DNA of 45,075 nt, taken from IMG/VR virus record IMGVR_UViG_3300045988_034500; one strand, 5' to 3'. The notes beneath the pieces are model-generated. The model did not search any database and was not told the origin of the DNA. It saw only the letters and a list, made by a program, of their open reading frames with translations. Shown piece after piece: positions 1 through 45,075 of the stretch; the stretch's first letter is position 1, and the number at the start of each line of letters is the position of its first letter. Source of the DNA: a virus. The translations under genes and the position numbers were made by a program.

Positions 1-85
1 CGAAGGGCATAACACTATTATGGATTTTTACCGACAGGTAAAAGTAAATGCTGATAGTATAACAATGACTGTTGTTGAAAAAAAG
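1..85. repeat. 85-bp sequence identical to 44991..45075, the window start/end overlap of a circular assembly
   Basis: Direct comparison shows bases 1-85 equal bases 44991-45075 exactly. The ORF beginning at 44809 runs in frame through this repeat into 2..211. Confidence 0.9.
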
Positions 86-1916: not shown

Positions 1917-2178
1917 GAAACTTCATGAGATGCTTGCTGAGCTGTTTATCGAGGATATCAAGCTCTGTAGAGACGAGGGTATTCCTATGGCTGCTTCCGA
2001 CAAGGGTGTGATTGTTTCGTTCCTGAAGAACAATAACATCACTGCCGATCCTGATCTCGAAGATATGCAGAGACTCGATGAAGAGTTCAAGCGGCAGGCA
2101 GAGATTGAGAGAGCCGCTAGAGCCAAGAGTATGCTTGAACAGAAGGGAGATGATCGCTTTGACGATCTGCTGAATTGA
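1891..2178 (+). CDS. putative small terminase subunit (from position and size only)
   Basis: 95-aa ORF with a GGAGG RBS. Its stop overlaps the terL start (TGATG). T7 gp18 occupies the same position immediately upstream of the large terminase. Confidence 0.35.
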   Translation: MSAKTSTLEKLHEMLAELFIEDIKLCRDEGIPMAASDKGVIVSFLKNNNITADPDLEDMQRLDEEFKRQAEIERAARAKSMLEQKGDDRFDDLLN

Positions 2179-2432
2179 TGGAAGAGCTGACCCTACAACG
2201 AATCAAGCTACTGAAAGAACGTGTTAATCGTTATAGTAATGATCCTACGAAGATTCCGCAAGATGAGAGACGAGAACTCTCGCTGATGTTCGCTGTAGCT
2301 TTCAAGGACTTTAAGGACTTCTGTGAGATTGGTATGCGATTCCTTGGCTTCGGTATTACCGAGATGCAGTTGAGCATCGCAGAGTACGTCCAGAATGGCC
2401 CTAAGAAGAGAATGGTCCAAGCACAGAGAGGT
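2178..2432 (+). CDS. terL: large terminase subunit, exon 1 (N-terminal ATPase region up to the Walker A motif)
   Basis: The protein ends ...NGPKKRMVQAQRG, which aligns to T7 gp19 ...NGDNKKFILQAFRG immediately before the GIGKS Walker A motif. The open frame stops at TAG 2433-2435. Confidence 0.7.
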
Positions 2433-2662
2433 TAGTCTAAGGCTGAGCCTCGTAATCTCGTGAATACGGGGGAACTCTCGTAAGAGACAATCCCGTGCCA
2501 AGACTCGAAAGAGTAAGGTGTAACGACTATCCTATATGGAGTAGGGGCAAGTGTCCCGAAGCGCGAGACTCCGCATGTCGGAGAAGATATAGTCTGATCT
2601 TGTAGGCGACTACAAGCTGTCGAAAGACGGGGGAGGATTAACGACCCTCCCTGAACACAATG
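2433..2662 (+). mobile_element. group I intron (ORF-less, about 230 nt) interrupting terL at the Walker A motif
   Basis: Exon 1 ends in U (2432), which can form the U:G pair with G2448, and GAGG pairs with CCUC at 2449-2452 (P1). The intron ends in G2662. A gap-free alignment to T7 gp19 ([15 protein letters not shown] versus RG+EAKTTITALYAVW) places the 3' splice site here. The core region 2490-2545 is about 75 percent identical to the nrdD intron at 20143-20198. Confidence 0.65.
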
Positions 2663-4267
2663 GAAGCTAAGACGACCATTACAGCGCTGTACGCTGTGTG
2701 GAGATTGATCCAAGATCCTACTTGTCGTATCTTGATCGTCTCTGCAGGTGAAGATCAGTCCAATGACATCGCAGTGCTTATCATTCGATTGATCGAGCAG
2801 TGGTCTCTGATGTGTTGGCTTAGAGCAGATACCTCTAGAGGTGATAGATCCTCGTATGAGCATTATGACGTGAACAGGGATCTCAGACGAGTTGAGAAGT
2901 CTGCCAGTGTGTCGAGTGTTGGTATTAAAGCTAACCTCCCCGGTCGAAGAGCTGACCTCATCATTGCTGACGACGTTGAGTCGATTACGAACTCCACTAC
3001 GCAGGTTATGCGTGATGACCTTCTGAATAGAACGAAGGAGTTCACTGCTATCTGTACGCATGGACATATCCTGTACCTCGGTACCCCTCAGACTAGAGAG
3101 AGCGTGTACAAAACTCTGCTCAGTCGAGGCTTTGATATCCGTATCTGGCCAGGTAGATATCCTGAACCTGATAGGTTGGACAGGTACCTTCCAGGCACGC
3201 TAGCTCCAGAGATCGAAGAGGCTATCAGGAAGGACCCCTCGCTTCAGAGTGGTGGTGGTCTAGACGGTACCAGAGGGAAGCCTACTGATACGGGTAGATA
3301 CACGGAAGAGGATCTTCAGGATAAAGAGCTTGACTACGGTCCTGAAGGCTTTGACCTGCAGTACATGCTCGATACTACGCTCTCTGATGAAGCTAGAACG
3401 AAGATCAAGCTCAGTGATCTTATGATCGCCAATACTGGGTACATAGAAGCCCCTGAGACGTTCATGTACAGCGCAGAGCCTAGACTCCTCGTCAAGGATC
3501 CTGAGATTGCTACACCTCCGATGCACGGCAATCGAATGTACTACACGGCAAGAGCATCGGAGAACTTTATCAAGTACGATCATAAGGTTATGGTCGTAGA
3601 CCCTGCAGGTAATGGCGGTGATGAACTGGCTTACTGCTGTGGAGGTGCATGTAACTCTTACGTGCATATCTTTAGCGTAGGCGGGTTCATTGGCGGCACT
3701 ACCGAAAAGAACATCAACGATATTATTGATCTGTGCTTGGAGTTCGACATTAAAGCGATTAAAGTCGAATCCAACATGGGACATGGTACTGTTGAATCAC
3801 TGTTCATCGCTGAACTTCAGAAGCGAAAGATTAACGATATTGGTGTTGAAGGGTTCTATAACACAATCCAGAAGGAGAAGCGTATCATTGATACCGTGTC
3901 TCCTGTAACTCGTAGACACAAGATGGTGTTCCATGAGAGAGCCATCAGAGACGATTGGAAGTGTTGTATCAGGTACACCCCTGAGAAGAGAACCATCGTG
4001 AGTTGTCTGTACCAGATGGCTAACATCACGTATGATAGACAGTCCTTGGCTAAGGATGACCGTGTGGATGCTCTGGCAGGCGTTGTACAACACCTCAGTG
4101 ATTGTATCGCAAAGGATGACGATAAAGCGAATGAACTTAGAGAACAAGAACAAGCAATGGAGTTCTACAGAAATCCTATGGGATACAAGAACTACGGAGG
4201 TAAGAAATACAACGAATGGAACAACTTGCACAAGTACAGCAGGGTAACTCGGAAGCATCGTTGGTAG
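2663..4267 (+). CDS. terL: large terminase subunit, exon 2 (rest of ATPase domain plus nuclease domain)
   Basis: EAKTTITALYAVWRLIQDPTCRILIVSAGED... and LIIADDVE (Walker B) align with T7 gp19 [29 protein letters not shown]... and IIIADDVE. YLGTPQT is conserved. Confidence 0.85.
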   Translation, partial: EAKTTITALYAVWRLIQDPTCRILIVSAGEDQSNDIAVLIIRLIEQWSLMCWLRADTSRGDRSSYEHYDVNRDLRRVEKSASVSSVGIKANLPGRRADLIIADDVESITNSTTQVMRDDLLNRTKEFTAICTHGHILYLGTPQTRESVYKTLLSRGFDIRIWPGRYPEPDRLDRYLPGTLAPEIEEAIRKDPSLQSGGGLDGTRGKPTDTGRYTEEDLQDKELDYGPEGFDLQYMLDTTLSDEARTKIKLSDLMIANTGYIEAPETFMYSAEPRLLVKDPEIATPPMHGNRMYYTARASENFIKYDHKVMVVDPAGNGGDELAYCCGGACNSYVHIFSVGGFIGGTTEKNINDIIDLCLEFDIKAIKVESNMGHGTVESLFIAELQKRKINDIGVEGFYNTIQKEKRIIDTVSPVTRRHKMVFHERAIRDDWKCCIRYTPEKRTIVSCLYQMANITYDRQSLAKDDRVDALAGVVQHLSDCIAKDDDKANELREQEQAMEFYRNPMGYKNYGGKKYNEWNNLHKYSRVTRKHRW

Positions 4268-6372: not shown

Positions 6373-6462
6373 ATGATTGAGATGATCGCCAGAGGCGTAT
6401 GCCTCGCCCTCGCCGCCCTGTTCGTCTGGGCATGTTGTTACTTTGTTTACGCCATTGCTTAA
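6373..6462 (+). CDS. small hydrophobic peptide (29 aa, MIEMIARGVCLALAALFVWACCYFVYAIA) coupled to the downstream polymerase-like gene
   Basis: GGAGG RBS 7 nt upstream. Its stop lies inside the RBS of the next gene. Not in the ORF track because of its size. Confidence 0.35.
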   Translation: MIEMIARGVCLALAALFVWACCYFVYAIA

Positions 6463-6473
6463 GGAGTATCATT

Positions 6474-8030
6474 ATGGCTACGTCTAAGATTATCGCTCAC
6501 GTCAGTGCCCGTATGGAAGAGCTTAAGGCTCGCACCCTTGCCAGTCTCCAGAAGGCAGGTCGCCCTCGGGTAGTAGCCCAGACGATATTCATCGCCGCCG
6601 CCCGTGCCTGTGGTCTGCAGGCTACCCGTAACATCGTTGGCGACCTTACGGCAGTAAAGCCGCTCGTCCGTGCCATGGTTGCTGACGGCTCCCTTGTCTT
6701 CCATCACGTGGAGGGCGGGACTAGCTATTACACGATCCCGTCGGTTGACGGCATGACGGGTAACACTGCCCATACTCCGGGTAACGCCTCCTTTGAAGTC
6801 GATCCCCGTCACATCGGGGAGGACTGTCTGCACTTGCAGGCAGGGAAACTGATCGCCTCCCGCGTCTGGCGTGTCAACGTCCGCAGGCTTGAAGAAGCGC
6901 GAGACCGTAATGCTAACGGTTACGTGTTCAATGATTTCAAGTGGGAAAAAGCCCCGGCTGAGGACGATGCCGCATTTATCGCACAAAGGCAGCAGATTGC
7001 CGCTATTTCTGCTATCGTTGATAGCATCGGTGTCAACGTAGCGTTTGATGCTTTCTGTGATGACCGCGGACGTTTCTATGTCCGTGGGGGCTATACTAGC
7101 CCGTATATGGGCAAGTTGGGTCGTTGGCTCTACACCGCTGACGACGAGGTGACATTAGACCATAGGACGTCATTCGCCCAGAACTTCGCCCTGCTGACTG
7201 GCGATGCTATGGGGCAACACTGCGGTGTTGGTACCGCAGAGGATTGCGATTTCTGGCGTGGTCTCCTTGCCCCGTATGGCGTTAACATCGCCCCGCACAG
7301 CCTGCATAGGGATGCGTGCAAAAGCTACGGGATGCCCCTTTTTTATGGGGCAGGTCAGAGCCTTGCCGCTGAACGTCGTAATGCACTGCTAAAGCAGGCA
7401 GTATCGGCAGGGGAGATCGCCCAGACACAAGCCGACGCCATCGCCGAAGCCCTCGACAAAGTGGGCGAGAAGCTCAAAGGATTTCAGGAGCTGACGCGCT
7501 CCTTCGCGCAGTCCTTCGTGGACTGGGGCGAGGATCCCTCGTGGATTACGCCCAGTGGCTTCAAAGCCTGCAAGAAGTACCGCACGCATAAAACGCTTGT
7601 GTGGAACTCGGGCGAAAACGATTCCACTTGGGCATACCCCAAATCTATGACCCTTAAGGTCAAAACAGGTACAATCTGCACTCAGCCAAAGGACGAGTCC
7701 GACAAGTCCGTTCTTGTGGCAACGACTGCGAACATCCTGCAGTCGTTGGACGCCGCCCTGATGGCTAAGGTTATTGTGTCCTTTAAGCAGGAAACGGGGG
7801 TTACCCTGTTTCCCCTGCATGACTCCTACACCGTGCCAAAGGAGCTTGCCCCCGCACTTACAGCCTGCGTTATTCAGGCAATGCGAGAGCTTGCCGACTC
7901 CGACGAGATGAAGGCGCTCCGCCGTGAACTTAACCTCCCGCCTGTGAAGGTGATCACGGGGAAGGCTCGACCCTCCGACCAGATGCGAAACCTCGACCTT
8001 CGAGCGATGAACCCGCTCGACGAGGAATAA
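6474..8030 (+). CDS. truncated single-subunit RNAP homologue (518 aa; thumb, palm and fingers only; lacks the N-terminal promoter-binding domain)
   Basis: AAGGAG RBS. T7 RNAP motifs are intact: VAFDAFCDD (motif A; T7 LAFDGSCSG), HRDACKSYGMPLFYGAG (motif B RxxxKxxxxxxxYG; T7 RSVTKRSVMTLAYGS), PSWITPSGF (T7 HWVTPDGF), NILQSLDAALM (T7 NFVHSQDGSHL), LHDSY (motif C; T7 IHDSF). Clearly higher GC than the rest of the phage. An intrinsic terminator follows. Confidence 0.7.
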   Translation: MATSKIIAHVSARMEELKARTLASLQKAGRPRVVAQTIFIAAARACGLQATRNIVGDLTAVKPLVRAMVADGSLVFHHVEGGTSYYTIPSVDGMTGNTAHTPGNASFEVDPRHIGEDCLHLQAGKLIASRVWRVNVRRLEEARDRNANGYVFNDFKWEKAPAEDDAAFIAQRQQIAAISAIVDSIGVNVAFDAFCDDRGRFYVRGGYTSPYMGKLGRWLYTADDEVTLDHRTSFAQNFALLTGDAMGQHCGVGTAEDCDFWRGLLAPYGVNIAPHSLHRDACKSYGMPLFYGAGQSLAAERRNALLKQAVSAGEIAQTQADAIAEALDKVGEKLKGFQELTRSFAQSFVDWGEDPSWITPSGFKACKKYRTHKTLVWNSGENDSTWAYPKSMTLKVKTGTICTQPKDESDKSVLVATTANILQSLDAALMAKVIVSFKQETGVTLFPLHDSYTVPKELAPALTACVIQAMRELADSDEMKALRRELNLPPVKVITGKARPSDQMRNLDLRAMNPLDEE

Positions 8031-9306: not shown

Positions 9307-9381
9307 CTGCAGGTAGCTCAACGGATAGAGCATAGGTCTTCTAAACCTACGATAGGGGTTCAATTCCCCTCCTGCGGTCCA
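9307..9381 (+). tRNA. tRNA-Arg (anticodon TCT), CCA encoded
   Basis: Folded by hand: 7-bp acceptor stem with one G-U pair; D-stem GCTC/GAGC with an 8-nt loop; anticodon stem TAGGT/ACCTA with loop CTTCTAA; 4-nt variable loop; T-stem AGGGG/CCCCT with loop TTCAATT; discriminator T then CCA. Confidence 0.8.
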
Positions 9382-13717: not shown

Positions 13718-16021
13718 ATGATTCCAATCCCGCGATATACAATTGTTGACCTAGAAACAGAGAACCATGAATACTATGGCATGGTAGCTCCTCCTTTCTG
13801 TCCCGAAAACTACATTGTTGAAGCGGGATGGAAGAACAACCAAGGCCCTGTAGAATCCATGCGATTCACTAATCGTGAAGAGCAGAAGAACTCTGCATGG
13901 TTTGACTACGCTTTCGATAACGGAAAGCCTGATTCGTACTGCGAAGTCATGGTTGCTCATAATGCAACCTATGAATTGCATTGGTTCATGCACGACTACA
14001 TGCCTAGCCTTATGCGATTCCTTCAGAATGGTGGTAAGATTTGGTGTACTCAATACGCCGAATATCTGCTTAGCCAACAGCAGGACTTGTATCCTGACTT
14101 GAATACCACGGCACCTAAGTACGGTGGTACACCTAAAGTTGATGAAGTCAAGATTCTATGGGAACAAGGCGTTCTCACCTCAGAGATCGACCCTGATCTT
14201 CTGCATGAATATCTGTGTTCTGACCATGGTGACGTAATCAACACTGAGAAGATCTTCCTTGGACAATGGGAAGAAGCTCAGAAGCGTGGTATGCTCAAAA
14301 TGATCCAGTACAGAATGGATGCGCTTCTGTTCAACGCATTCTGTACATTCTTCGGTATGCACATCGACATGGATGTTGCTGAGAAGAATCTCAAGGAACA
14401 AGAGAATCGGCTGCAAGAACTTCACAATAAGGTCAATGCTCATCTTCCAAAGGATCTACCCTTTGAATTCAAGTTCTCTTCAGACTACCACATGAGTGCT
14501 TGGTTGTTCGGTGGAACACTCAAGTACAAAACCAAAGTGCCCTACGACCCGCCTAAATACGTCAAGAAGACGGTGTACAAGGACTCTGAGGGTGGATACA
14601 CTGAAGAGCCTACAGAACGCTCTGTACGCTACGCTAGTGGCAAGAACAAGGGGCTTCCCAAGCCGTTCAAGATCGACACGGATGAAGAACTTCTGAAATG
14701 GGGTGAGAAGCTGTACACATTCGAAGGGCTAATGAACCTGAAAGATCTACCCCAAGAAATTTCTGATAAATTCATTGGTGAACGTCCTGAATTCGCAGGT
14801 AAGCGATTCCAAGTAGACGGTACGCCAGTCTTTAGCACTTCTGCGGATGCACTTGCAACCATAAAACGGTATTGCGACGTGGTCGATGAACTGCTAGAGA
14901 TTGCTCAGTTGGAGAAAGACAATGGAACGTACTATCGGCGGTACGAATACGACTCTGAAGGGAACGTTAAGAAGGTTTCTGGAATGCTACAATATGTTAT
15001 TCCAGAATCATCCATCATTCACCATCAGCTTAATGCGTGCGCTTCTAGAACAGGCAGACTCTCAAGTTCAAGACCAAACCTCCAGAACCTACCTAGAGAT
15101 GGTACGAGCAGAGTTAAAGAGATGTTCTCAAGTCGATTTGGAGACCATGGAAGATGTGTTGAAGTCGACTATTCCGCCCTTGAAGTCGTAACACTAGCTG
15201 CTGCTAGTAATGACAAAAACTTGATTGAACAGCTTGAGAAAGGCACAGACATGCACTGCTATAGACTAGCAGGCGCATTGAATGAACCTTATGAAGAGGT
15301 GTACAAGAAGTGTCATGAGGAGGATCATCCTGACCACAAGAAGTACAAAGAACTCAGAACGGCAATCAAACCAAGAGCCTTCGCTGCTCAGTACGGAGCC
15401 TCTGCAGGGGGTATCTCCTTTGCAACAGGCTGTACGCTACAAGAAGCAGAGAAGTTCCTCGAAACTGAAGCTAAGCTCTTCCCTGAGAGTAGAGCATTTA
15501 AGGACAAGGTTCGTGCAATGGTTGAGCAGACAGGTTTGTTACCTGAAGCCATTGAGCGAGAACTTGATCCTGCGACAAATTCATGGTATGTATACCGAAG
15601 GGGATACTACAAAGCGCCTGGAGGCACAGAATACTCCTTCAGGCAAAGAAAACAATGGAAAGACCACAAAGAAGTTCTAGACTATAAGGACACTGAGATC
15701 AGCAACTATCCTATCCAAGGCGAAGGTGCGTTCATCGTTCAGACAGCCTGTGCTAGGATCATTAGATGGTTGATCGAGGCGAACTTCTTTGATGGATCTA
15801 TCCTACCGATTAACACTGTTCATGACGCCGTGTACCTTGACTGCAAGACTGAAGACCTCGCTAGACGAGGAGGTAAGGCAGTAGCATGGATCATGGGCAC
15901 TACACCTAAATACATTGCAAAGAACATCCCAGCGTACAAGGCATGGATGTACGACAAAGTACCTTTCCCTGCTGTACCTGAAATGGGATACAACCTCTTT
16001 GACAAGGCCCACGTAGAATAA
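13718..16021 (+). CDS. family A DNA polymerase (T7 gp5-like) with a 3'-5' exonuclease domain
   Basis: Exo I motif IVDLETE; motif B RTAIKPRAFAAQYGAS; motif C NTVHDAVYLD. Confidence 0.85.
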   Translation: MIPIPRYTIVDLETENHEYYGMVAPPFCPENYIVEAGWKNNQGPVESMRFTNREEQKNSAWFDYAFDNGKPDSYCEVMVAHNATYELHWFMHDYMPSLMRFLQNGGKIWCTQYAEYLLSQQQDLYPDLNTTAPKYGGTPKVDEVKILWEQGVLTSEIDPDLLHEYLCSDHGDVINTEKIFLGQWEEAQKRGMLKMIQYRMDALLFNAFCTFFGMHIDMDVAEKNLKEQENRLQELHNKVNAHLPKDLPFEFKFSSDYHMSAWLFGGTLKYKTKVPYDPPKYVKKTVYKDSEGGYTEEPTERSVRYASGKNKGLPKPFKIDTDEELLKWGEKLYTFEGLMNLKDLPQEISDKFIGERPEFAGKRFQVDGTPVFSTSADALATIKRYCDVVDELLEIAQLEKDNGTYYRRYEYDSEGNVKKVSGMLQYVIPESSIIHHQLNACASRTGRLSSSRPNLQNLPRDGTSRVKEMFSSRFGDHGRCVEVDYSALEVVTLAAASNDKNLIEQLEKGTDMHCYRLAGALNEPYEEVYKKCHEEDHPDHKKYKELRTAIKPRAFAAQYGASAGGISFATGCTLQEAEKFLETEAKLFPESRAFKDKVRAMVEQTGLLPEAIERELDPATNSWYVYRRGYYKAPGGTEYSFRQRKQWKDHKEVLDYKDTEISNYPIQGEGAFIVQTACARIIRWLIEANFFDGSILPINTVHDAVYLDCKTEDLARRGGKAVAWIMGTTPKYIAKNIPAYKAWMYDKVPFPAVPEMGYNLFDKAHVE

Positions 16022-16720: not shown

Positions 16721-17616
16721 TGAAACTCAGGGATATACAGATCCCTGATACCGATCAATTCAAGCCTAGCATGGACCGTGTCCTCATCATGGATGGGGAT
16801 GCGGCATGCTATGAGGCTGCTTCTAAGTACGTAAAGTTGGATACAGCTATTCGATGCGTACACATGAAGATTCTTGAAGCTATGTTTCTTACGAACTGCA
16901 AGAAGGCTAGAGTCCATATCACGCCTGCAGGTTGTTTGAAAGCAGGCAGAATGAACTTGATTGGTGTAAAGCCTTATCAGGGTAATCGTAAGGACAAGAA
17001 GAAGCCTGAGTTGTTGGAAGCTCTCAGGCAGAATATCTCGGCATTGCTCAATGACAAGAACATTGAGGTATTTGCTCATTATGATATTGAGGCTGATGAT
17101 GCAGTGGTTATCGACAGTTATTACTACCGCAACAAAGGACTTGTGTACAGTCCTGACAAAGATCTTAGAATGGTTGTGTATCCTCTGTATGATTTGGATA
17201 CTGGCAGGGTTTGTACTATTGCTGACCCTTTTGGTGATATTAGCATCACCAGTACTGAGTCTGGTCTTCCTCATCCAAGGGGGCAAGGACTGAAGTTCTT
17301 CTGGTGGCAGATGCTCATGGGAGATACTGCCGATAACATTCGAGGCTTGGATAAGTACCAAGGCAAGAACATCGGTATGAAGAAAGCCTATGAACTACTA
17401 AAGCCTATCAAAGACGAAGTCACTGCGGCTATTGTAGTGCTTAGTGCATACAAGGAAATCAATCAGAATCCTTTTCCTGAAGCGAACATGCTATGGCTTC
17501 TACGTAATGAAGCAGACAGCTTTCAGAAGCATCTTGCGGAGCTTACTCCGAGTATGCCCCATGAGCTTGTTCAATGGCTTAGAGATTGCTACAAAAGGAA
17601 GTGGAGGAAGGATTGA
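16720..17616 (+). CDS. 5'-3' exonuclease (T7 gp6-like FEN family)
   Basis: VLIMDGDAACY versus T7 ILVMDGDWLVF; YQGNRK versus YKANRK; EADDAVVIDS versus EGDDVMGVIAS; SPDKDL versus SCDKDF. Confidence 0.8.
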   Translation: MKLRDIQIPDTDQFKPSMDRVLIMDGDAACYEAASKYVKLDTAIRCVHMKILEAMFLTNCKKARVHITPAGCLKAGRMNLIGVKPYQGNRKDKKKPELLEALRQNISALLNDKNIEVFAHYDIEADDAVVIDSYYYRNKGLVYSPDKDLRMVVYPLYDLDTGRVCTIADPFGDISITSTESGLPHPRGQGLKFFWWQMLMGDTADNIRGLDKYQGKNIGMKKAYELLKPIKDEVTAAIVVLSAYKEINQNPFPEANMLWLLRNEADSFQKHLAELTPSMPHELVQWLRDCYKRKWRKD

Positions 17617-18047
17617 GAAAGATTAGCAGGTCCCAGCTCAGAGCGTGGGCTATCGGACACATCAAGACTAAGCAGGGAGGACTGTGTCCTCTCTGTGGCA
17701 AGCCCATCTCTCTTCAGGTGATGGGTAATAAATCCGACTACGTGGTTGACCATGACCACGAAACGGGAGAAATTAGGGGCGTGCTGCATCGCTCATGCAA
17801 TGCAGCTGAAGGTAAGGTAAGCAATGCAGCCGCCCGTTGGGGTGCCAAAAGCACCAAGTACAGCGACATCATCCCATGGTTGCACAGAATGCTTGATTAC
17901 CTAGAGAACAATGAGGGTACTGGGATTATCTATCCAGACCATAAGACTCCTGAAGAACGTGAAGAATTCAGGAAACAACGCGCTAGAAAGGCGCAGGCAT
18001 TGCGCAAAGCAAGACAGGCTTTGCGTGCTAAGGAGAAACATGATTAA
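17586..18047 (+). CDS. endonuclease VII-like Holliday-junction resolvase
   Basis: GGLCPLCGKPI...VVDHDHETGEIRGVLHRSCNAAEGK matches T4 gp49 GKCLICQREL...HLDHDHELNGPKAGKVRGLLCNLCNAAEGQ. Possible internal TTG or GTG start at 17601 or 17613. Confidence 0.8.
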   Translation: MLQKEVEEGLRKISRSQLRAWAIGHIKTKQGGLCPLCGKPISLQVMGNKSDYVVDHDHETGEIRGVLHRSCNAAEGKVSNAAARWGAKSTKYSDIIPWLHRMLDYLENNEGTGIIYPDHKTPEEREEFRKQRARKAQALRKARQALRAKEKHD

Positions 18048-20088
18048 GGTAATTAAGAAAGACGGCACTGTCGAACCGTTCGATATGGAAAAAATCTTCA
18101 AGGCTATCGACAAGGCCAGCCAACGTGCTAACTGCAACATCCGTAGAGGCGACCATGAGCTTCTGGAGTCGTACATCACTTTTGAATGCGAGTCCAAGGG
18201 CAAGGACATTCCTACGTCTGAGATGCACAGCATCGTAATCAAGGCGCTGTATGCTTGTGACTACAAGGCTATTGGTGACGCATACAAGGAGTTCAGAGAT
18301 TACAAGAACACGTATGCCAAGGCCTTTGAAAAGGTGAAGGATGATGCGGACACTGTTCTTCTTCTCGGAGACAGGGAGAATGCTAACTTTGATTCTTCGC
18401 TTATCAGTACGAAGGGTTCGCTCATCAAGGGGTACCTCACGAAGGAACTGTACAAGCAGTTCTATCTGAACAAGGAAGAACTCCAAGCTACGAAGGAAGG
18501 CACGATCTATATCCATGATCTTCGAGACATGATTTTCAACAGCATCAACTGCTGTCTGTTCGACATGGGTAATGTCCTCAAGGGTGGATTCAGCATGTCC
18601 AATGTGGACTACACTGAACCTACTAGCGTGCTCAGTGCGCTTCAGGTTATCGGTGACATCACGCTCGTCGCTACTGCACAGCAGTTCGGTGGGTTCACCA
18701 TTCCGAGTATTGATAAGACGCTTCTCCCGTATGCCAGAAAGACTTACAATAACGCCTTCAAGAAATACTTCGATACTTGTAATCTGGAGTATGACGAAGC
18801 AGACTCCATGGCTCTTGGTGACCTCAAGCGCGAACTTGAACAGGGCTTCCAGTCTCTTGAACTGAAGCTCAACACTGTGCCGTGTTCCAGAGGTGACTTC
18901 GCCTTTACCACTCTTACGTTCGGTGAATGGAGCAATGACCTCCCTGATCTCGACAAGGAAATCCTCCAGATGGTGTGTGAAACCATCCTTGAGATTCGCA
19001 TGAAGGGGCATGGTCCGAAGGGTAAGCAGGTTGTGTTTCCCAAGCTCGTGTATCTCTATGACTGGGAACAGCACAGTGGTGCTGAACATGCTGAGGTGTT
19101 CGACAAGGCTGTTGAATGCTCTAGCAAGTGCATGTACCCTGACTACCTTGCAATCAACTCTGACTATGGCTCGGTATCTGAAACCTACCGAGCATCGAAC
19201 AAGCAGTGCGTGATTCATCCGATGGGTTGCAGGGCGTACCTCACGCCTTGGTACGACATTGAAACCAATGAATACGTGTCTGTTGGCCGATGCAACATCG
19301 GCGCTGTGTCTCTGAATCTTCCTCTTATCTACAAGAAGGATCCTGAGAAGTTCTATGAGAACCTCACTGAGAACCTTGAACTTATTCGTAAGTTCTTCCA
19401 GAAGAGATATGAAGCAGTTGCTGAAACGAAGGCATGCACGAACCCCATGGCATTCTGTCAGGGTGGATTCTACAAGGGGAATCTCAATCCTGATGATAAG
19501 ATCGGTGATCTTACGCAGTACATGACTGCTAGTTTTGGTGTTACCGCCCTCTCAGAATTTGTTGAACTTCATGGTCTGAAGCTGAACTCTGCTCTTGGTA
19601 GAGACCTTGCCATCAAGGTTGTTGACTTCATCAATAAGAAGATCAATGAGTTCAAGAAGGAGGATGGGCACCTGTATGCTCTTTACGGTACTCCTGCAGA
19701 GTCCCTGTGTGGTACTCAGATGCAGCAGTATCATGACTATTGCAAAGCACACGGAGTTAAAGATGAATTCGAAGGAAGAAACTACTTCACGAACTCGTTC
19801 CACATCCATGTCGCAGAAGACATCTCGCCCGTCGAGAAACAGACGTGGGAATTCCCTCTGTTCCATAAGGTTCAGGGTGGGCACATCCAGTACATCAGAA
19901 TTGATAACCCTGAGAATCTGAAGGCCGTTAAGGCTCTGATTATCAGGGGCATGTACAACGGTTTCTATCAAGGTGTGAACTTTGATGCTGCAGTTTGTGA
20001 AGACTGTGGCGAGCACTCCACTAATGTAGGCAAGCACTGCCCGCATTGTGGTTCCAACAACATCTCTGTCATCAGTCGTGTCTGTGGG
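18040..20088 (+). CDS. nrdD: anaerobic ribonucleotide reductase NrdD, exon 1 (ATP cone, core, Zn ribbon, RVCG of the glycyl-radical motif); exact 3' end uncertain by about 3 nt
   Basis: ATG at 18040 with an AAGGAG RBS and an ATP-cone start MIKVIKKDGTVEPFDMEKIF. Zn ribbon CEDCGEHSTNVGKHCPHCGS, then SRVCG, then an in-frame stop, so the conserved Tyr and C-terminal tail are missing from this exon. Confidence 0.8.
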
Positions 20089-20719
20089 TTAACTTAATGG
20101 CTCACGTTAAATTCTCCCTAAACGGGGAACATCCAGAACGGACAATCCCGTGCTAACCCGTGTGACTACGGAAATGTGTAACGACTATATAGGAGAACTA
20201 TGTTAAAAGAAATTCCAGACTATCCAAGCTACTACGCCGATGAACTCGGCAACATCTATGGTACTAAGAACCAAAAGAAAATGTATAGGCTAACGCCCTA
20301 CAGTAAGTTAGGATACTTGCGTGTCAGAATGCGACTGAATGGTCGCTGTGTAGACAAGTCTGTTGCTTACTTAGTCGCTAGAGCGTTCGTAAGTGGATAC
20401 AAGGAAGATCTAGAAGTCAACCATATAAACAAGATCAGAGACGACAATCGTCCTGAAAACCTTGAATGGATGACTCACAAGGAGAACGCAAGATACTCCT
20501 TGTGCAGGAAACTCAAAGTAACTACAAAGGCAGGTACAGTGCTGTACTATGACTCTTGTGGTAACTTCTCTAGAGATACAGGTATTGCTACCAATAATCT
20601 CGCTAGATGGTATATGCAAAAGAATAATGGCTATATCAAGAAGTTTGAGTTGACTGTCGAATACATAGAAGAGATAGTCTGAACTGCATAGGAATATGCA
20701 GATTAACAAAATTGATCTT
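20089..20719 (+). mobile_element. group I intron in nrdD carrying an HNH homing endonuclease ORF (boundaries approximate)
   Basis: The 5' segment TAACTTAATGGCT...ACGGGGAAC...GACAATCCCGTGCTAA...GTGTAACGACTATATAGGAG parallels the terL intron (TAGTCTAAGGCT...ACGGGGGAAC...GACAATCCCGTGCCAA...GTGTAACGACTATCCTATATGGAG). The 3' segment GAAGAGATAGTCTGA...TGATCTTG parallels terL intron 2583-2602. The intron interrupts the RVCG|Y glycyl-radical motif. Confidence 0.65.
20200..20682 (+). CDS. HNH homing endonuclease (intron-encoded)
   Basis: TAGGAG RBS. HNH motif EVNHINKIRDDNRPENLEWMTHKEN. Located inside the nrdD intron. Confidence 0.75.
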   Translation: MLKEIPDYPSYYADELGNIYGTKNQKKMYRLTPYSKLGYLRVRMRLNGRCVDKSVAYLVARAFVSGYKEDLEVNHINKIRDDNRPENLEWMTHKENARYSLCRKLKVTTKAGTVLYYDSCGNFSRDTGIATNNLARWYMQKNNGYIKKFELTVEYIEEIV

Positions 20720-20797
20720 GGTTACTCTAATGTCAATGGACATTCCAGAATGAATGATGCCAAGATGGCAGAGATCAAAGATAGGAAATCAATGTGA
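20720..20797 (+). CDS. nrdD: NrdD exon 2 (GYSNVNGHSRMNDAKMAEIKDRKSM, the tail after the glycyl radical)
   Basis: A short frame beginning GGT TAC directly after ...GATCTTG. It restores the expected G-Y after RVC(G), and its tail length (about 25 aa after the Gly) is typical of NrdD. The exact junction cannot satisfy both the U(-1) rule and the omega-G rule simultaneously. Confidence 0.55.
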   Translation, partial: GYSNVNGHSRMNDAKMAEIKDRKSM

Positions 20798-21199: not shown

Positions 21200-21526
21200 A
21201 TGACTACTCCTAAGAAGTACACTAGCGTTACCCGTATTGGTGTTACCGCTGAATTCGAAGCCTATCCCACCTGTAAGGGACACGTGGACTTTGCAACCTT
21301 CCATTTCCCGAGCATCCGATCCTTCGTTGCTTGGGTGAATGACCATAACAGCAACATTGCTTACGTTGTGGTTAAGGATCCTAAGAAGACTTCGGCTGAT
21401 CTTTACACGGAATGTTGGTCCCGAACGTTCATCTCGCCTCATATCAAGCGAGGTTGCACGTGCCATGTGACCGTCAGGCTTGACTGTGGAGCTGTTGGAC
21501 AGCTTACGCTCTATAAGAGCGAATAA
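21200..21526 (+). CDS. hypothetical protein
   Basis: 108-aa ORF with an AAGGAAAG RBS. Confidence 0.5.
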   Translation: MTTPKKYTSVTRIGVTAEFEAYPTCKGHVDFATFHFPSIRSFVAWVNDHNSNIAYVVVKDPKKTSADLYTECWSRTFISPHIKRGCTCHVTVRLDCGAVGQLTLYKSE

Positions 21527-22029
21527 TGAATTACTCTGGACTCAACCTATGCGATACCGCTAACGGACCAGGGGTCCGCGTATCTCTGTTCGTTAGCGGG
21601 TGCTCCTTGCATTGCAAGGGGTGTTTCAACCAAGAGGCATGGGATAAGAACTACGGAATGCCTTTCGATTCCTACGCCCTCACAAAGGTTCTAGAAGCCT
21701 TAAAGGAGCCCTGTATTGAGGGCTTAAGCATCCTTGGGGGTGACCCCATGGAGGAGTACAATCGACGCGATGTGGGGCTTGTATGCGCCTCTGTGAAGGC
21801 CCTGTATCCAGACAAGAGTATTTGGCTTTGGACAGGTCGTAAGTTCGACGAGATCAAATACTACGGTCATATCTTGGATTACGTAGATGTGCTCATCTGT
21901 AATCCGTTTATCGAACATCTTAAATGTAAAGGAAAATACTATGGAAGTTCAAACCAACGAGCTTATCGGAAATCTCCAGACGGAACTTGGAATTTGGTTC
22001 AAGAGGACTCATCAGAATGTCCCTGTTAA
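21526..22029 (+). CDS. nrdG: anaerobic ribonucleotide reductase activating protein NrdG (radical SAM)
   Basis: N-terminal CSLHCKGC (CxxxCxxC) cluster. Size of about 167 aa. Adjacent to nrdD. Confidence 0.75.
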   Translation: MNYSGLNLCDTANGPGVRVSLFVSGCSLHCKGCFNQEAWDKNYGMPFDSYALTKVLEALKEPCIEGLSILGGDPMEEYNRRDVGLVCASVKALYPDKSIWLWTGRKFDEIKYYGHILDYVDVLICNPFIEHLKCKGKYYGSSNQRAYRKSPDGTWNLVQEDSSECPC

Positions 22030-23749: not shown

Positions 23750-26176
23750 ATGACGGAATGTCCTGATTATACCGATGAAGAACTTGAGAAAGAAGCTCAA
23801 TACGAACGTAGATTCTACCAAGAAGGCTTGGCTAGAGCGTACCAACAGATGAAGGAGGCCGTCGATAACGGTAGGCTTCCTGATGTAGGGGTTGGTAAGA
23901 AGATCATCAATAGGTCTTTTGCTACGTTGGTTGAGGATCTTACGGAAGCAGCTAAGCCCTGTCGAGGTGTGGGTGCAAAGTACAGCGCCCATATCCGTAA
24001 GCTAGGGATTGAAGCATCCATGATGATTGGTTTGAGAATCATCCTTTCCAACGGCAGTTCTCCTGAACCGCGACACAGAACTGTTCAGTGCATCTTGGGA
24101 CGTATTGGTATGGCTATTGAGACGGAATTGCTCGCTCGTAAATTCGAGGAGATCAATCCGTACTACAATGCTCGTATCGCTTCTCAGGTTAAGGAACAGT
24201 GCGTACATGACGTGCGTACCATCAGAGCCAAGTACCTCACTGGCTATAAGGATCTTAGTATTAACTATGAACCTTGGACTGAGCAAGAGAGGCTGGGTAC
24301 TGCAAAGGTAGTAATGCAAACTATCTGGAAGGCGGGTCTCTTCACAATCACAAACGGTAGTCGTCGTGCTCCTTCTCTGGTTGAACTCTCTGATGAAGTG
24401 AAGATGTTCATCCAGAACAACTACGACCACATCCATCCAGTGATCCAGTTCCCCGTGATGCTCATCAAGCCCCTTCCGTGGAGAGGGATGTACAATGGTG
24501 GGTACATTATCCCTGAGCTGAGGAATCACTGCCCGATGATGAAACTCCACGCTATGCCTAGAGACCTCCGTAAATGGGTAACAGAGCGCGTAGGAGGCGT
24601 CGAGGACGCTCAGGTAAGGGAAGGTATGACCAAGGCTCAGGAAGTCCCGTATCGCGTTAATACGCGCGTCCTAGAGGTTGCTAGGAAGGCGTTCGCCTCT
24701 CCCAAGGGATTGCTTGGGCTTCCTCCCCATGGTCCACAGCCTCAACCGCCCTTCCCCTTCCCTGAAGGGTGGAATAAGGACTCCGCTACAAAGGATGAGC
24801 TTGAGTTGTTCACGAAGTGGAAGCTCGAAATGAAGAGCTGGTACACGTATGAGAACACTCGACTGGGTAAGAAGAGCGGATTGAATGGTAGGCTCAGGTA
24901 CCTGAATGAACTCAAGGATGAGCCAAGGTGGTACTGTCCTGCGTTCATTGATTGGCGTGGTAGGGTGTACTTCAGAAGCACGATCAATCCCCAGAGTGCT
25001 GACGTAATCAAGGGGTGTATTGATTTTGCAGAGGGTAAGGAGTTAGGTGCAGAAGGATTGTACTGGCTGAAGGTTCACGTAGCCAACTGCTGTGGGTACG
25101 ACAAGAAGAACTTTGATCTCAGAGTTCAGTGGGTCGACGAACATTGGGAGGAAATTAAAGCATTCCTTCACGATCCATTGAATGTTGATCCTCCAGAGAA
25201 GGACACTGCCTTCACGCTCCTGCAAGCAGGATGGGACTTAGAGAGCGCTCTAGCGCTTCCTGACCCAACCAAGCATATCTCCCATACCCCAGTGGCTATG
25301 GACGCCACCTGCAGTGGCCTACAGCACTACAGCGCTATGCTGAGAGATGAGGTAGGCGGGTACTACACGAACCTCGTCAAGAGTGATTCTGATGAGAAGC
25401 ACGACATCTACAAGGCTGTTGCTGAGAAGGCTATGGAGTTCCTTCCTGAAGTTACCGATGATGCGTTCATCATCAAGTGGTGGAAGGACAAGGGGATTCC
25501 TAGGTCTATGGCTAAGCGTCCTGTGATGACATACGTGTACAGTGCTACGCTTAGAAGCTGTATTGATTACGTAACGGAGGAGCTAGTCGAGGAAGGTGTT
25601 GAGATTCCCAGTGGCTATAGCTACATCAGTCTTAGCACTCCTATTGGCAAGGCTCTTAGAAAAGCCGTTGAAGCTACTGTTCCCAAAGCCAAGGAAGGTA
25701 TGGATGCTCTTAAGGAGCTAGTTAAGTCCCAAGACGATGCAATTAGATGGATAACTCCAGTAGGTGTTCCTGTTGTTAACTACAAGGACAGCTACCATAT
25801 GAAGTTAGTGCGTCTTAGCTGTATGGGTTTAACGAATATCTCTTATGGCTTTAGTGGTTCAGAGTACAATCGTATGAAAGCTATCAACGGTATTAGTCCG
25901 AACTTCATTCACTCGATGGATAGTTCACATTTGATTAAGGTGGTTAATGCTTTTAACGGTCGTATCCTTTGTATCCATGACAGCTTTGGTACTCACGCTT
26001 GTGATGTACCTGTTCTTCGAACTGAACTGCTCAGACAATTTGTGGATCTGTACGCACATTACGATGCCAAGGACCATTTCGTATTGTCTGCAGAGAATCG
26101 AACAGAGGTACAACTCCCTCCTCATGGGACATTGTCTCTAGAGGAGGTACTGGAATCGGAGTTCGCATTCTGCTAA
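23750..26176 (+). CDS. T7-like single-subunit DNA-dependent RNA polymerase (808 aa)
   Basis: PVAMDATCSGLQHYSAMLRDEVGG (motif A), RSMAKRPVMTYVY (motif B), IHDSFGTHA (motif C), C-terminus ESEFAFC (T7 ESDFAFA). Confidence 0.9.
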   Translation: MTECPDYTDEELEKEAQYERRFYQEGLARAYQQMKEAVDNGRLPDVGVGKKIINRSFATLVEDLTEAAKPCRGVGAKYSAHIRKLGIEASMMIGLRIILSNGSSPEPRHRTVQCILGRIGMAIETELLARKFEEINPYYNARIASQVKEQCVHDVRTIRAKYLTGYKDLSINYEPWTEQERLGTAKVVMQTIWKAGLFTITNGSRRAPSLVELSDEVKMFIQNNYDHIHPVIQFPVMLIKPLPWRGMYNGGYIIPELRNHCPMMKLHAMPRDLRKWVTERVGGVEDAQVREGMTKAQEVPYRVNTRVLEVARKAFASPKGLLGLPPHGPQPQPPFPFPEGWNKDSATKDELELFTKWKLEMKSWYTYENTRLGKKSGLNGRLRYLNELKDEPRWYCPAFIDWRGRVYFRSTINPQSADVIKGCIDFAEGKELGAEGLYWLKVHVANCCGYDKKNFDLRVQWVDEHWEEIKAFLHDPLNVDPPEKDTAFTLLQAGWDLESALALPDPTKHISHTPVAMDATCSGLQHYSAMLRDEVGGYYTNLVKSDSDEKHDIYKAVAEKAMEFLPEVTDDAFIIKWWKDKGIPRSMAKRPVMTYVYSATLRSCIDYVTEELVEEGVEIPSGYSYISLSTPIGKALRKAVEATVPKAKEGMDALKELVKSQDDAIRWITPVGVPVVNYKDSYHMKLVRLSCMGLTNISYGFSGSEYNRMKAINGISPNFIHSMDSSHLIKVVNAFNGRILCIHDSFGTHACDVPVLRTELLRQFVDLYAHYDAKDHFVLSAENRTEVQLPPHGTLSLEEVLESEFAFC

Positions 26177-44808: not shown

Positions 44809-45075
44809 ATGCTGAACAAGGAGCTTCTATTGGCTACAGAGAGTCAAATAGCAGGGCATATTAAGCTAACGGTCGGAGAATACTATGGCACTTTTGGGTA
44901 CTTTGAAGCCCGGGCAGGTTCTATAAATAGAATCCCAACATGGAACAAAGGAGAGAACCCTATTAAAATGCTTTCGCTACTTACTGATCCCGAAGGGCAT
45001 AACACTATTATGGATTTTTACCGACAGGTAAAAGTAAATGCTGATAGTATAACAATGACTGTTGTTGAAAAAAAG
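44809..45075 (+). CDS. hypothetical protein, 5' part (continues as 2..211 across the circular junction; full length about 131 aa)
   Basis: GGGAGG RBS 7 nt upstream of the ATG at 44809. Open to the window end. Confidence 0.55.
   Translation, partial: MLNKELLLATESQIAGHIKLTVGEYYGTFGYFEARAGSINRIPTWNKGENPIKMLSLLTDPEGHNTIMDFYRQVKVNADSITMTVVEKK

Follow-up and report, generated by a model that had tools for sequence, protein, structure and literature searches.

The window analysed here is the whole 45,075-nt stretch of DNA in the IMG/VR virus record IMGVR_UViG_3300045988_034500, and the element in question is a 625-nt insertion in its nrdD gene, which encodes a class III (anaerobic) ribonucleotide reductase (RNR). 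All parts of the gene and of the insertion lie on the plus strand. Exon 1 (18040..20089) opens with the ATG at 18040 and holds 683 codons and the first base (T) of the Tyr684 codon, ending in ...SRVCG and t at a boundary fixed by intronless alleles, and exon 2 (20715..20797) supplies the "at" that completes Tyr684, followed by LGYSNVNGHSRMNDAKMAEIKDRKSM and a stop codon, as judged from the tails of homologues. The putative group I intron between them (20090..20714) extends from the first base past U20089 to its terminal G20714 (omega-G), matches the Rfam family RF00028 and coincides with a stretch that is absent from seven related contigs (L004-L010). The loop of its P8 helix holds the gene of a predicted HNH homing endonuclease of 160 amino acids (aa), which is I-HmuI-like according to Pfam HNH_3, the structure 1U3E and PHROG 59 (20200..20682). 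A first-pass annotation made from the sequence alone had proposed a group I intron with an HNH endonuclease at the glycyl-radical motif of nrdD in a T7-like podovirus, and this proposal is borne out by the RF00028 match, the helices, the 625-nt polymorphism, the occupation of the same site in divergent nrdD genes and the HNH open reading frame (ORF).

Predicted Splice Junction and Spliced Product

As had already been described, exon 1 is soon followed by a stop: unspliced, the nrdD frame runs from the ATG at 18040 through ...CPHCGSNNISVISRVCG into two intron codons (Leu-Thr) and the stop at 20095-97, so that the unspliced NrdD ORF ends in RVCGLT. The closest homologue in GenBank, MT835695.1 (L001), carries an uninterrupted NrdD of 700 aa ending in ...SRVCGYLGYSNVNGKTRMNDAKMAEIKDRKSM, the same glycyl motif as in L001 is found in two more faecal phage contigs, and uninterrupted NrdD homologues read SRVCGYLGYSNVNG. 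All pairs of donors (20070-20097) and acceptors (20690-20729) were enumerated, and the resulting C-termini were scored against the homologue. A single best pair was obtained, past U20089 and past G20714, which settles a junction that the first-pass annotation had left unresolved; judged also from the intronless alleles, the exact boundaries of the intron are now resolved as 20090..20714. This pair meets both the U(-1) and the omega-G rules, so the anomaly reported earlier, in which sites obeying both rules would give RVCG-C-YSNV or RVCG-F-YSNV, vanishes, the predicted product being RVCG-Y-LGYSNV. The 3′ end of the Rfam model, G20701, was also considered as the junction (RVCG..INKIDLGY) and rejected, as only U20089/G20714 gives the conserved SRVCGYLGY.

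The predicted ligated product, ...SRVCG-Y-LGYSNVNGHSRMNDAKMAEIKDRKSM, comprises 710 aa and has the SRVCGYLGY motif and the tail in the same register as uninterrupted homologues. The intron splits the Tyr684 codon (t/at; here and below, the slash marks the point of insertion) and lies one base past the radical-glycine codon. An alignment of the spliced product to NrdD glycyl-radical domains had been named as a check on the annotation, and against the NrdD profile TIGR02487 the spliced protein scores 461 bits (cutoff 326) over profile positions 2-581 of 581. RVCGY occupies residues 680-684 of the spliced product, which alone has the attributes of a class III RNR. The C-terminal tail of NrdD does lie downstream and ends at 20797 as first annotated, but exon 2 starts at 20715 and not at 20720, and it contributes 27 residues, the split Tyr included, and not about 24; it does not contain the RVxG glycine. 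The "conserved Tyr" placed at 20720-25 proved to be misassigned, as the Tyr at 20723-25 is the second Tyr of GYLGY, because uninterrupted homologues read GYLGY. Among the distinct uninterrupted alleles with a glycyl motif (n = 63, from all fetched loci), 55 read RVCGYLG, and the remainder read RVCGYLS, RVSGYLS, RVCGYIS or RTVGYIG.

Predicted Structure of the Ribozyme

A covariance-model search, also named earlier as a check, gave a match to RF00028 at 20058..20701 (E 1.5e-8, 40.1 bits, gathering score 50), which is full-length over model positions 1-253, places an ORF insertion of about 480 nt in P8 and conserves the J8/7-P7 core motifs. Helices were assigned manually, guided by the Rfam alignment. 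The P1 hairpin (20084..20105) pairs the exon segment GUGGGU (20084-89) with the guide GCUCAC (20100-05) and places a U20089.G20100 wobble at the 5′ splice site; together with the terminal intron G (G20714), this is the arrangement expected of a group I intron. P1 also appears in the minimum-free-energy fold; among members of the intron family 6/6 of its pairs show compensatory changes, and 23 sequences have U.G at column 10:42.

The 5′ domain of the ribozyme (20112..20197), supported by the fold and by covariation, comprises P3 (20112-17 with 20192-97), P4 (20123-27 with 20146-50), P5 (20132-34 with 20140-42), P6 (20152-53 with 20176-77), P6a (20158-61 with 20168-71) and the 5′ strand of P7. 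P7 is formed by GACUAU (20183-88) and AUAGUC (20674-79) through six Watson-Crick pairs, which were checked, and P8 (20198-203 with 20663-68) encloses the ORF. The 3′ part, taken from the Rfam alignment (20663..20714), begins with the 3′ strand of P8 (20663-68) and continues through J8/7, the 3′ strand of P7, the P9 hairpin (20684-90 with 20695-701, with a GGAA loop) and a 13-nt 3′ tail that ends at omega-G20714. The spacers are short, with 3 nt between the P7 5′ strand and P3′, 0-1 nt between P3′ and P8, and 6 nt (GUUAAA) between P1 and P3. A minimum-free-energy fold of the ORF-deleted core recovered 37 of the 39 assigned nested pairs, and the closing pair of P8 (20198:20668) is C-G, A-U or U.G across the eight same-site copies described below. 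The same kind of fold of the ORF-deleted intron also pairs GUUAA (20106-10), just past P1, with UUAAC (20703-07) in the 3′ tail, closing the core; this pairing is invariant in 8/8 copies and hence beyond the reach of covariation. A candidate P9.0 would pair A20682-A20683 with U20712-U20713.

Our own covariance model of the 5′ domain gave 36 matches among the compiled sequences, in which the T4 nrdD (sunY) intron scored 54.3 bits (E 3e-9), a Vequintavirus nrdD intron 53.9 bits and a second intron of the window, in terL, 28.7 bits. In the 33 distinct family sequences, 93.2% of the cells were paired; shuffles gave 72%, slid controls 37-51%, and no shuffle equalled the observed values. Fitting the alignment to the model biases it toward the structure, though the margin is large all the same. 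Changes on both sides were found in 22 of the 26 pairs of this 5′-domain alignment; with the six pairs of P7 and the covarying closing pair of P8, a P3-P8 core with the P3/P7 pseudoknot and compensatory changes is present. The intron was not filed as canonical subgroup IA2 (the T4 td / nrdB / sunY type, with P7.1, P7.2 and P2) despite its sunY-like 5′ domain, because it has no P2 and no P7.1/P7.2.

Two other candidate signals in this region were set aside. The superficially T7-like sequence TAACGACTATATAGGAGA was considered as a T7-type promoter, but it occurs once genome-wide even at ≤3 mismatches and lies outside every repeat family; it is treated as the conserved J6/7-P7-P3′ core and not as a promoter, and the genome repeat search revealed no phage-promoter-like repeat inside the intron. 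A SNORD99 match (20711-20780; 24 bits against a gathering score of 60) was regarded as noise.

The Predicted HNH Endonuclease

The first-pass annotation of an HNH gene with its own ribosome-binding site (RBS) was upheld for the 160-aa ORF, which matches Pfam HNH_3 with an E of 3.5e-11 (43 bits, cutoff 24.8) and is preceded by the Shine-Dalgarno sequence GGAG (20192-95). I-HmuI (PDB 1U3E) aligns to ORF residues 3-111 (E 6.7e-9), including the HNH motif, EVNHINKIRDDNRPENLEWMTHKEN against VVDHKDGNKDNNLSTNLRWVTQKIN; with an HNH_3 score above the cutoff and an aligned catalytic motif, the protein has the hallmarks of an I-HmuI-type enzyme. It also matches the HNH endonucleases of PHROG 59 (E 2e-28), and the nearest endonucleases of GenBank phages share about 30-46% protein identity with it (46% at most). 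The ORF is intact in 8/8 intron copies, with a length of 156 or 160 aa, the window copy being 4 codons longer than the 156-aa variants. The ratio of nonsynonymous to synonymous divergence (dN/dS) is 0.13-0.16 between variants, at a dS of about 0.5-0.6, and the endonuclease is under purifying selection. The exact endonuclease protein of the window was also seen on at least 6 public metagenome contigs, such as L107 (UMGC01019088.1) and L108 (ERR414441 contig); on such contigs gene callers give a truncated NrdD of 685 aa, and no nrdG is called at the place of the window's nrdG.

The endonuclease gene overlaps the ribozyme at both ends. The Shine-Dalgarno sequence coincides with the 3′ strand of P3, the AUG falls within the 5′ strand of P8, and the final codons run into the 3′ strands of P8 and P7. 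Because the RBS and start codon lie inside P3/P8, ribozyme folding and endonuclease translation would probably exclude each other, and a comparable sequestration of the RBS has been described for T4 intron endonucleases (PMC2988022).

Distribution of the Intron and Evidence for Its Mobility

IMG/VR was scanned with the spliced NrdD protein, and seven contigs (L004-L010) were found, each with an uninterrupted gene of 2130 nt for a NrdD of 98-99% identity. Compared with the ligated exons of the window, these genes show 95.5-98.0% nucleotide identity over 2133 nt, with exactly 625 nt missing. Across the insertion site they read TGTGGTTATTTGGGTTAC or TGCGGCTACCTCGGGTA(C/T), and the intronless allele of L006/L007 reads ...CGTGTCTGTGGTTATTTGGGTTAC... 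around it.

A 26-nt pattern of the P4-P5 core was used on IMG/VR and on public metagenome assemblies to find further copies. A 625-nt intron was located at exactly RVCG/Y in seven further loci, L083 (= L089), L085, L088, L092, L094, L097 and L099, which represent five distinct sequences, since L083/L092 and L085/L097 are duplicates. The nrdD genes that host these same-site introns are as little as about 60% identical. Between the window and L088 the intron is 98.4% identical, but the flanking 600 nt of exon 1 only 63%; between the window and L094 the intron is 89.9% identical and the same flank 96.8%. This discordance between intron and host gene indicates that the element moves horizontally. 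In addition, L099 joins an L088-like exon 1 to an L085-type exon 2; such discordance and such a mosaic would be produced by site-specific horizontal transfer (homing) accompanied by co-conversion of exon sequence or by recombination at the intron. Outside the ORF, the core shows 97-99% identity in every pair, the ORF down to 86%, and this conservation of the core together with the low dN/dS indicates that ribozyme and protein are both constrained.

The radical Gly codon is GGG in 8/8 intron-plus alleles and in 17 of the 63 intronless ones. GGG fits P1, where that G must pair with C20101; since the 17 intronless alleles share it, it was rejected as a marker of intron-plus alleles only. The 26-mer of the P4-P5 core found no match in 185,579 bacterial and archaeal genomes, and no GenBank phage record was found to carry the intron of the window, with distant matches only to the 5′ 66 nt and to part of the ORF. 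The exact 19-mer AACGACTATATAGGAGAAC had no match in IMG/VR, because the other copies differ at 20198.

Interpretation and Alternative Explanations

We interpret 20090..20714 as a mobile group I intron in the class III RNR gene nrdD, inserted past the first base of the Tyr codon (RVCG/Y), with a probability of roughly 0.88. Sequence comparison supports this through the boundaries, the restoration of the motif, P1 and P3-P9, the polymorphism among near-identical phages and the presence of the intron at the same site in distant nrdD genes. In the proposed mechanism, the exon segment GUGGGU and the guide GCUCAC would form P1 in the folded pre-mRNA, an external guanosine, bound at P7, would attack past U20089, and the freed exon 1 would attack past omega-G20714. 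Ligation of ggg t to at ctt would give the 710-aa NrdD, activatable by NrdG, and unspliced RNA would yield only the truncated ...RVCGLT protein without the tail. In a mixed infection, the HNH enzyme would nick or cut intronless nrdD near TGTGG(T/C)TA(T/C), and recombinational repair would copy the intron with short flanking stretches of exon. With the RBS and start of the endonuclease within P3/P8, the RNA could serve ribozyme folding or translation, not both.

Some observations weigh against this interpretation. At 40.1 bits, the RF00028 match falls short of the gathering score (50), in an alignment that carries the P8 ORF insertion of about 480 nt, and the core is compact, with about 170 nt outside the ORF and without P2 and P7.1/P7.2. 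A convincing P10 helix of 5-6 bp forms in the lineages of L083, L085 and L088, where exon 2 has AUUUAGG, but the window and L094, with AUCUUGG in exon 2, have a weak P10. Splicing and DNA cleavage are both steps that we infer from the sequence. Near the site, the window differs from intronless alleles by 7-13 mismatches per 100 nt, compared with about 2-4.5 on average over the whole gene, and this rise is suggestive of co-conversion but not proof of it.

The score under the gathering threshold and the poor P10 in the window lineage would also fit a decayed relic that no longer splices, which would leave nrdD a pseudogene or the source of a truncated inactive protein in a phage relying on host RNRs, and public callers indeed annotate only the truncated NrdD of 685 aa on the element-bearing contigs. 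Such decay is very improbable, as the ribozyme core has stayed 97-99% identical where the ORFs have drifted to 86%, the P8 pairing is kept by compensatory change, both exons are in frame and conserved, nrdG is intact, and the element has recently been mobile, which requires a tolerant host gene. Intronless split RNR genes are documented in phages (PMC3653736), and a free-standing endonuclease might likewise divide nrdD into two separately translated polypeptides that assemble, as mobE does with nrdA-a/nrdA-b of Aeromonas phage Aeh1, or leave a GrcA/YfiD-like spare part; an ATG at 20696 does open a 33-aa ORF (MQINKIDLGYSNV...; 20696..20797) in the frame of exon 2. However, the t/at codon of Tyr684 is encoded by neither fragment, about 140 nt of non-ORF sequence folds as a covarying group I core, and SRVCGYLGY is restored by the removal of exactly 625 nt. 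The 33-aa ORF contains no RVxG glycine, which is encoded in exon 1, and hence provides no radical-domain spare part; the independent YfiD/GrcA-like protein that the first-pass annotation had allowed for is likewise contradicted by an exon 2 of 27 residues that has no such glycine, and we give a split gene hardly any credence.

A somewhat less improbable possibility, which we nevertheless consider unlikely, is an intron that still splices but whose HNH ORF has lost its homing activity, and which would persist vertically or spread only by ordinary recombination between co-infecting phages. A defective intron HNH protein is known from T4 (I-TevIII; PMC2988022), and the window copy reads 4 codons past the 156-aa variants. 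The ORF is nevertheless intact in 8/8 copies with a dN/dS of 0.13-0.16 at a dS of about 0.5-0.6, its HNH motif aligns with that of I-HmuI, and the presence of a 98.4% identical intron in a 63% identical gene implies recent site-specific transfer.

The interpretation as a mobile group I intron reveals no new mechanism, but it corrects a gene model: automated callers end NrdD at 685 residues and lose its essential C-terminal tail, and the large terminase gene is affected likewise. It also extends the list of intron and intein sites in RNR genes by one that fits the rule that homing elements occupy the most conserved motifs, and the intron-plus and intron-minus alleles with three endonuclease variants could be used directly to map which site a new I-HmuI-type enzyme recognises.

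Genome Setting and Other Introns of the Phage Group

The window phage is a gut T7-like phage, with a T7-type terminase, connector, nozzle, T7-type tail fibre, single-subunit RNA polymerase and family A DNA polymerase. Exact 85-nt direct repeats lie at 1..85 and 44991..45075, so that the window represents the whole genome, about 44,990 bp long, either terminally repeated or assembled with a circular overlap. Among 50,697 GenBank phage records no close relative of the window was found, the sole related records being three unannotated contigs from human faeces. The start of nrdD is overlapped by an endonuclease VII gene (17586..18047), and downstream lies nrdG (21526..22029, plus strand), which encodes the radical-SAM (S-adenosylmethionine) activase (TIGR02491, 143 bits, cutoff 126; Pfam Fer4_12, E 5e-39); as the functional partner outside the intron, NrdG would make the radical on Gly683 of the spliced NrdD. 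The order endonuclease VII, nrdD, nrdG is that of T4 genes 49, nrdD, (mobC), nrdG, which suggests a transfer of the whole cassette between widely differing types of phage. A tRNA gene (9307..9378, plus strand; RF00005, 65 bits) was also detected, and a 543-aa ORF (6399..8030, plus strand) has a weak partial match to PF00940 (single-subunit RNA polymerase; E 1e-5, profile 247-369). The complete RNA polymerase of 808 aa is encoded separately (23750..26176); a split of the RNA polymerase gene, suspected from a partial Pfam match, was rejected, as the 808-aa protein ends in ...FAFC as in T7.

The large terminase gene terL of the window is interrupted at the Walker A motif by a second group I intron, which is ORF-less (2433..2662, plus strand) and scores above gathering with RF00028 (56.3 bits). 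Exon 1 of terL (2175..2432) ends in ...VQAQRG and exon 2 begins with EAKTTITALY; splicing past U2432 and G2662 would give QAQRG/EAKT, which aligns with QAFRGIGKS of T7 gp19. In the 3′ part of this intron, a 37-nt stretch (2627..2663) that forms a GGGGGAGG...CCCUCCC hairpin shares 97% identity with unannotated parts of 48 Pseudomonas phage records, which are about 92 kb long, and it is possibly a shared peripheral element of introns.

A second hot spot of group I introns in nrdD was observed at PMG/CR (window residues 396/397), in gut T7-like relatives and in Vequintavirus, the window being uninterrupted there. Introns at this site were found in L066 (4177-4894, with a 175-aa HNH protein), L078 (4165-4443, ORF-less), L083 (4189-4435, ORF-less) and L105/L106 (3009-3758). 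L105 and L106 (GenBank OR062943.1 and MN850642.1), genomes of cultured Vequintavirus phages, are annotated with nrdD_3, nrdD_2 and nrdD_1 as separate coding sequences, an "HNH homing endonuclease" between them and no intron feature. PMG/CR is presumably the loop of the thiyl-radical cysteine, and L083, with introns at both PMG/CR and RVCG/Y, has two nrdD introns that both lie in motifs of the radical chemistry. More group I matches were detected 2-4 kb downstream of nrdD, in L078 (7909-8234), L083 (7717-7929), L099 (13504-13634 and 12336-12397), L003 (6146-6248), L041 (6914-7038) and L011 (6951-7075), by Rfam with up to 71 bits or by our own model R1; the window has no counterpart there. Overall, this phage group appears to be unusually rich in introns.

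It is conceivable, though we regard the idea as tentative and somewhat on the doubtful side, that one sunY-like ribozyme lineage with an I-HmuI-type HNH enzyme has colonised at least two radical motifs of nrdD (PMG/CR and RVCG/Y) in gut T7-like phages and coliphages, and that both introns are exchanged today among nrdD genes of about 60% identity. If so, these introns would amount to a naturally occurring set of close endonuclease relatives that have been retargeted within one gene. In a bolder version of this idea, splicing at the radical site would be conditional and would gate the production of active NrdD.

Comparison with Known Systems

Group I introns with homing endonucleases in phage RNR genes are classic, and in a survey of 128 phage genomes nrdD was the RNR gene most often split (PMC3653736). 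The T4 nrdD (sunY) intron resembles that of the window in its host gene, its mobility, its variable presence among relatives and its related ribozyme 5′ domain. By arithmetic from the coordinates of its record and a NrdD length of 605 aa, this intron is 1033 nt long. Its ORF lies in the P9 region, and P7.1/P7.2 are present. The likeness to the T-even situation that the first-pass annotation had drawn holds as an analogy and for the 5′ domain (54 bits), but the T4 intron lies about 400 codons upstream of the glycyl site, near window residue 275, and its enzyme, I-TevII, is of the GIY-YIG family (PMC2988022), whereas that of the window is an HNH protein.

Vequintavirus (rV5-like) coliphages such as 241Ecol014PP and navn also carry group I introns in nrdD, one of them with an HNH homing endonuclease, and the first 66 nt of this HNH-carrying intron are 85-87% identical to the intron of the window. 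These introns, however, lie near residue 286 and at PMG/CR (396/397), with the HNH gene in the latter, and the glycyl-radical region is uninterrupted (RVSGYLS). In phage navn, an additional ORF of 311 aa separates nrdD from a 38-aa ORF annotated "putative anaerobic RNR"; the latter is a Cys-rich peptide and not a NrdD tail.

The I-HmuI of the DNA-polymerase intron of Bacillus phage SPO1 belongs, as does I-BasI, to the same endonuclease family, and the window ORF is similar at the nucleotide level to genes annotated as I-BasI, but I-HmuI has another host gene and another target sequence. In SPO1 the intron ORF lies in a peripheral loop, and enzymes of the I-HmuI type nick one strand near the insertion site. 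Among T7-like phages with group I introns in DNA polymerase genes, the cyanophage Pf-WMP3 has one with a nicking HNH enzyme, I-PfoP3I (PMC3428280), whereas in the window nothing interrupts the DNA polymerase gene (13718..16021), and nrdD and terL hold the introns. An intron at the glycyl-radical motif was not found described in the searchable literature, the >100 curated introns of RNRdb being outside this comparison. The introns of Staphylococcus phage Twort nrdE and of SPbeta bnrdE/bnrdF are in class Ib genes, none of them at a glycyl-radical motif, but they are similarly self-splicing, some with HNH genes, and lie beside critical conserved RNR residues (PMC3653736). The insertion site of the window, one base past the radical-glycine codon, is previously unreported in the searchable literature; the kind of element is well known.

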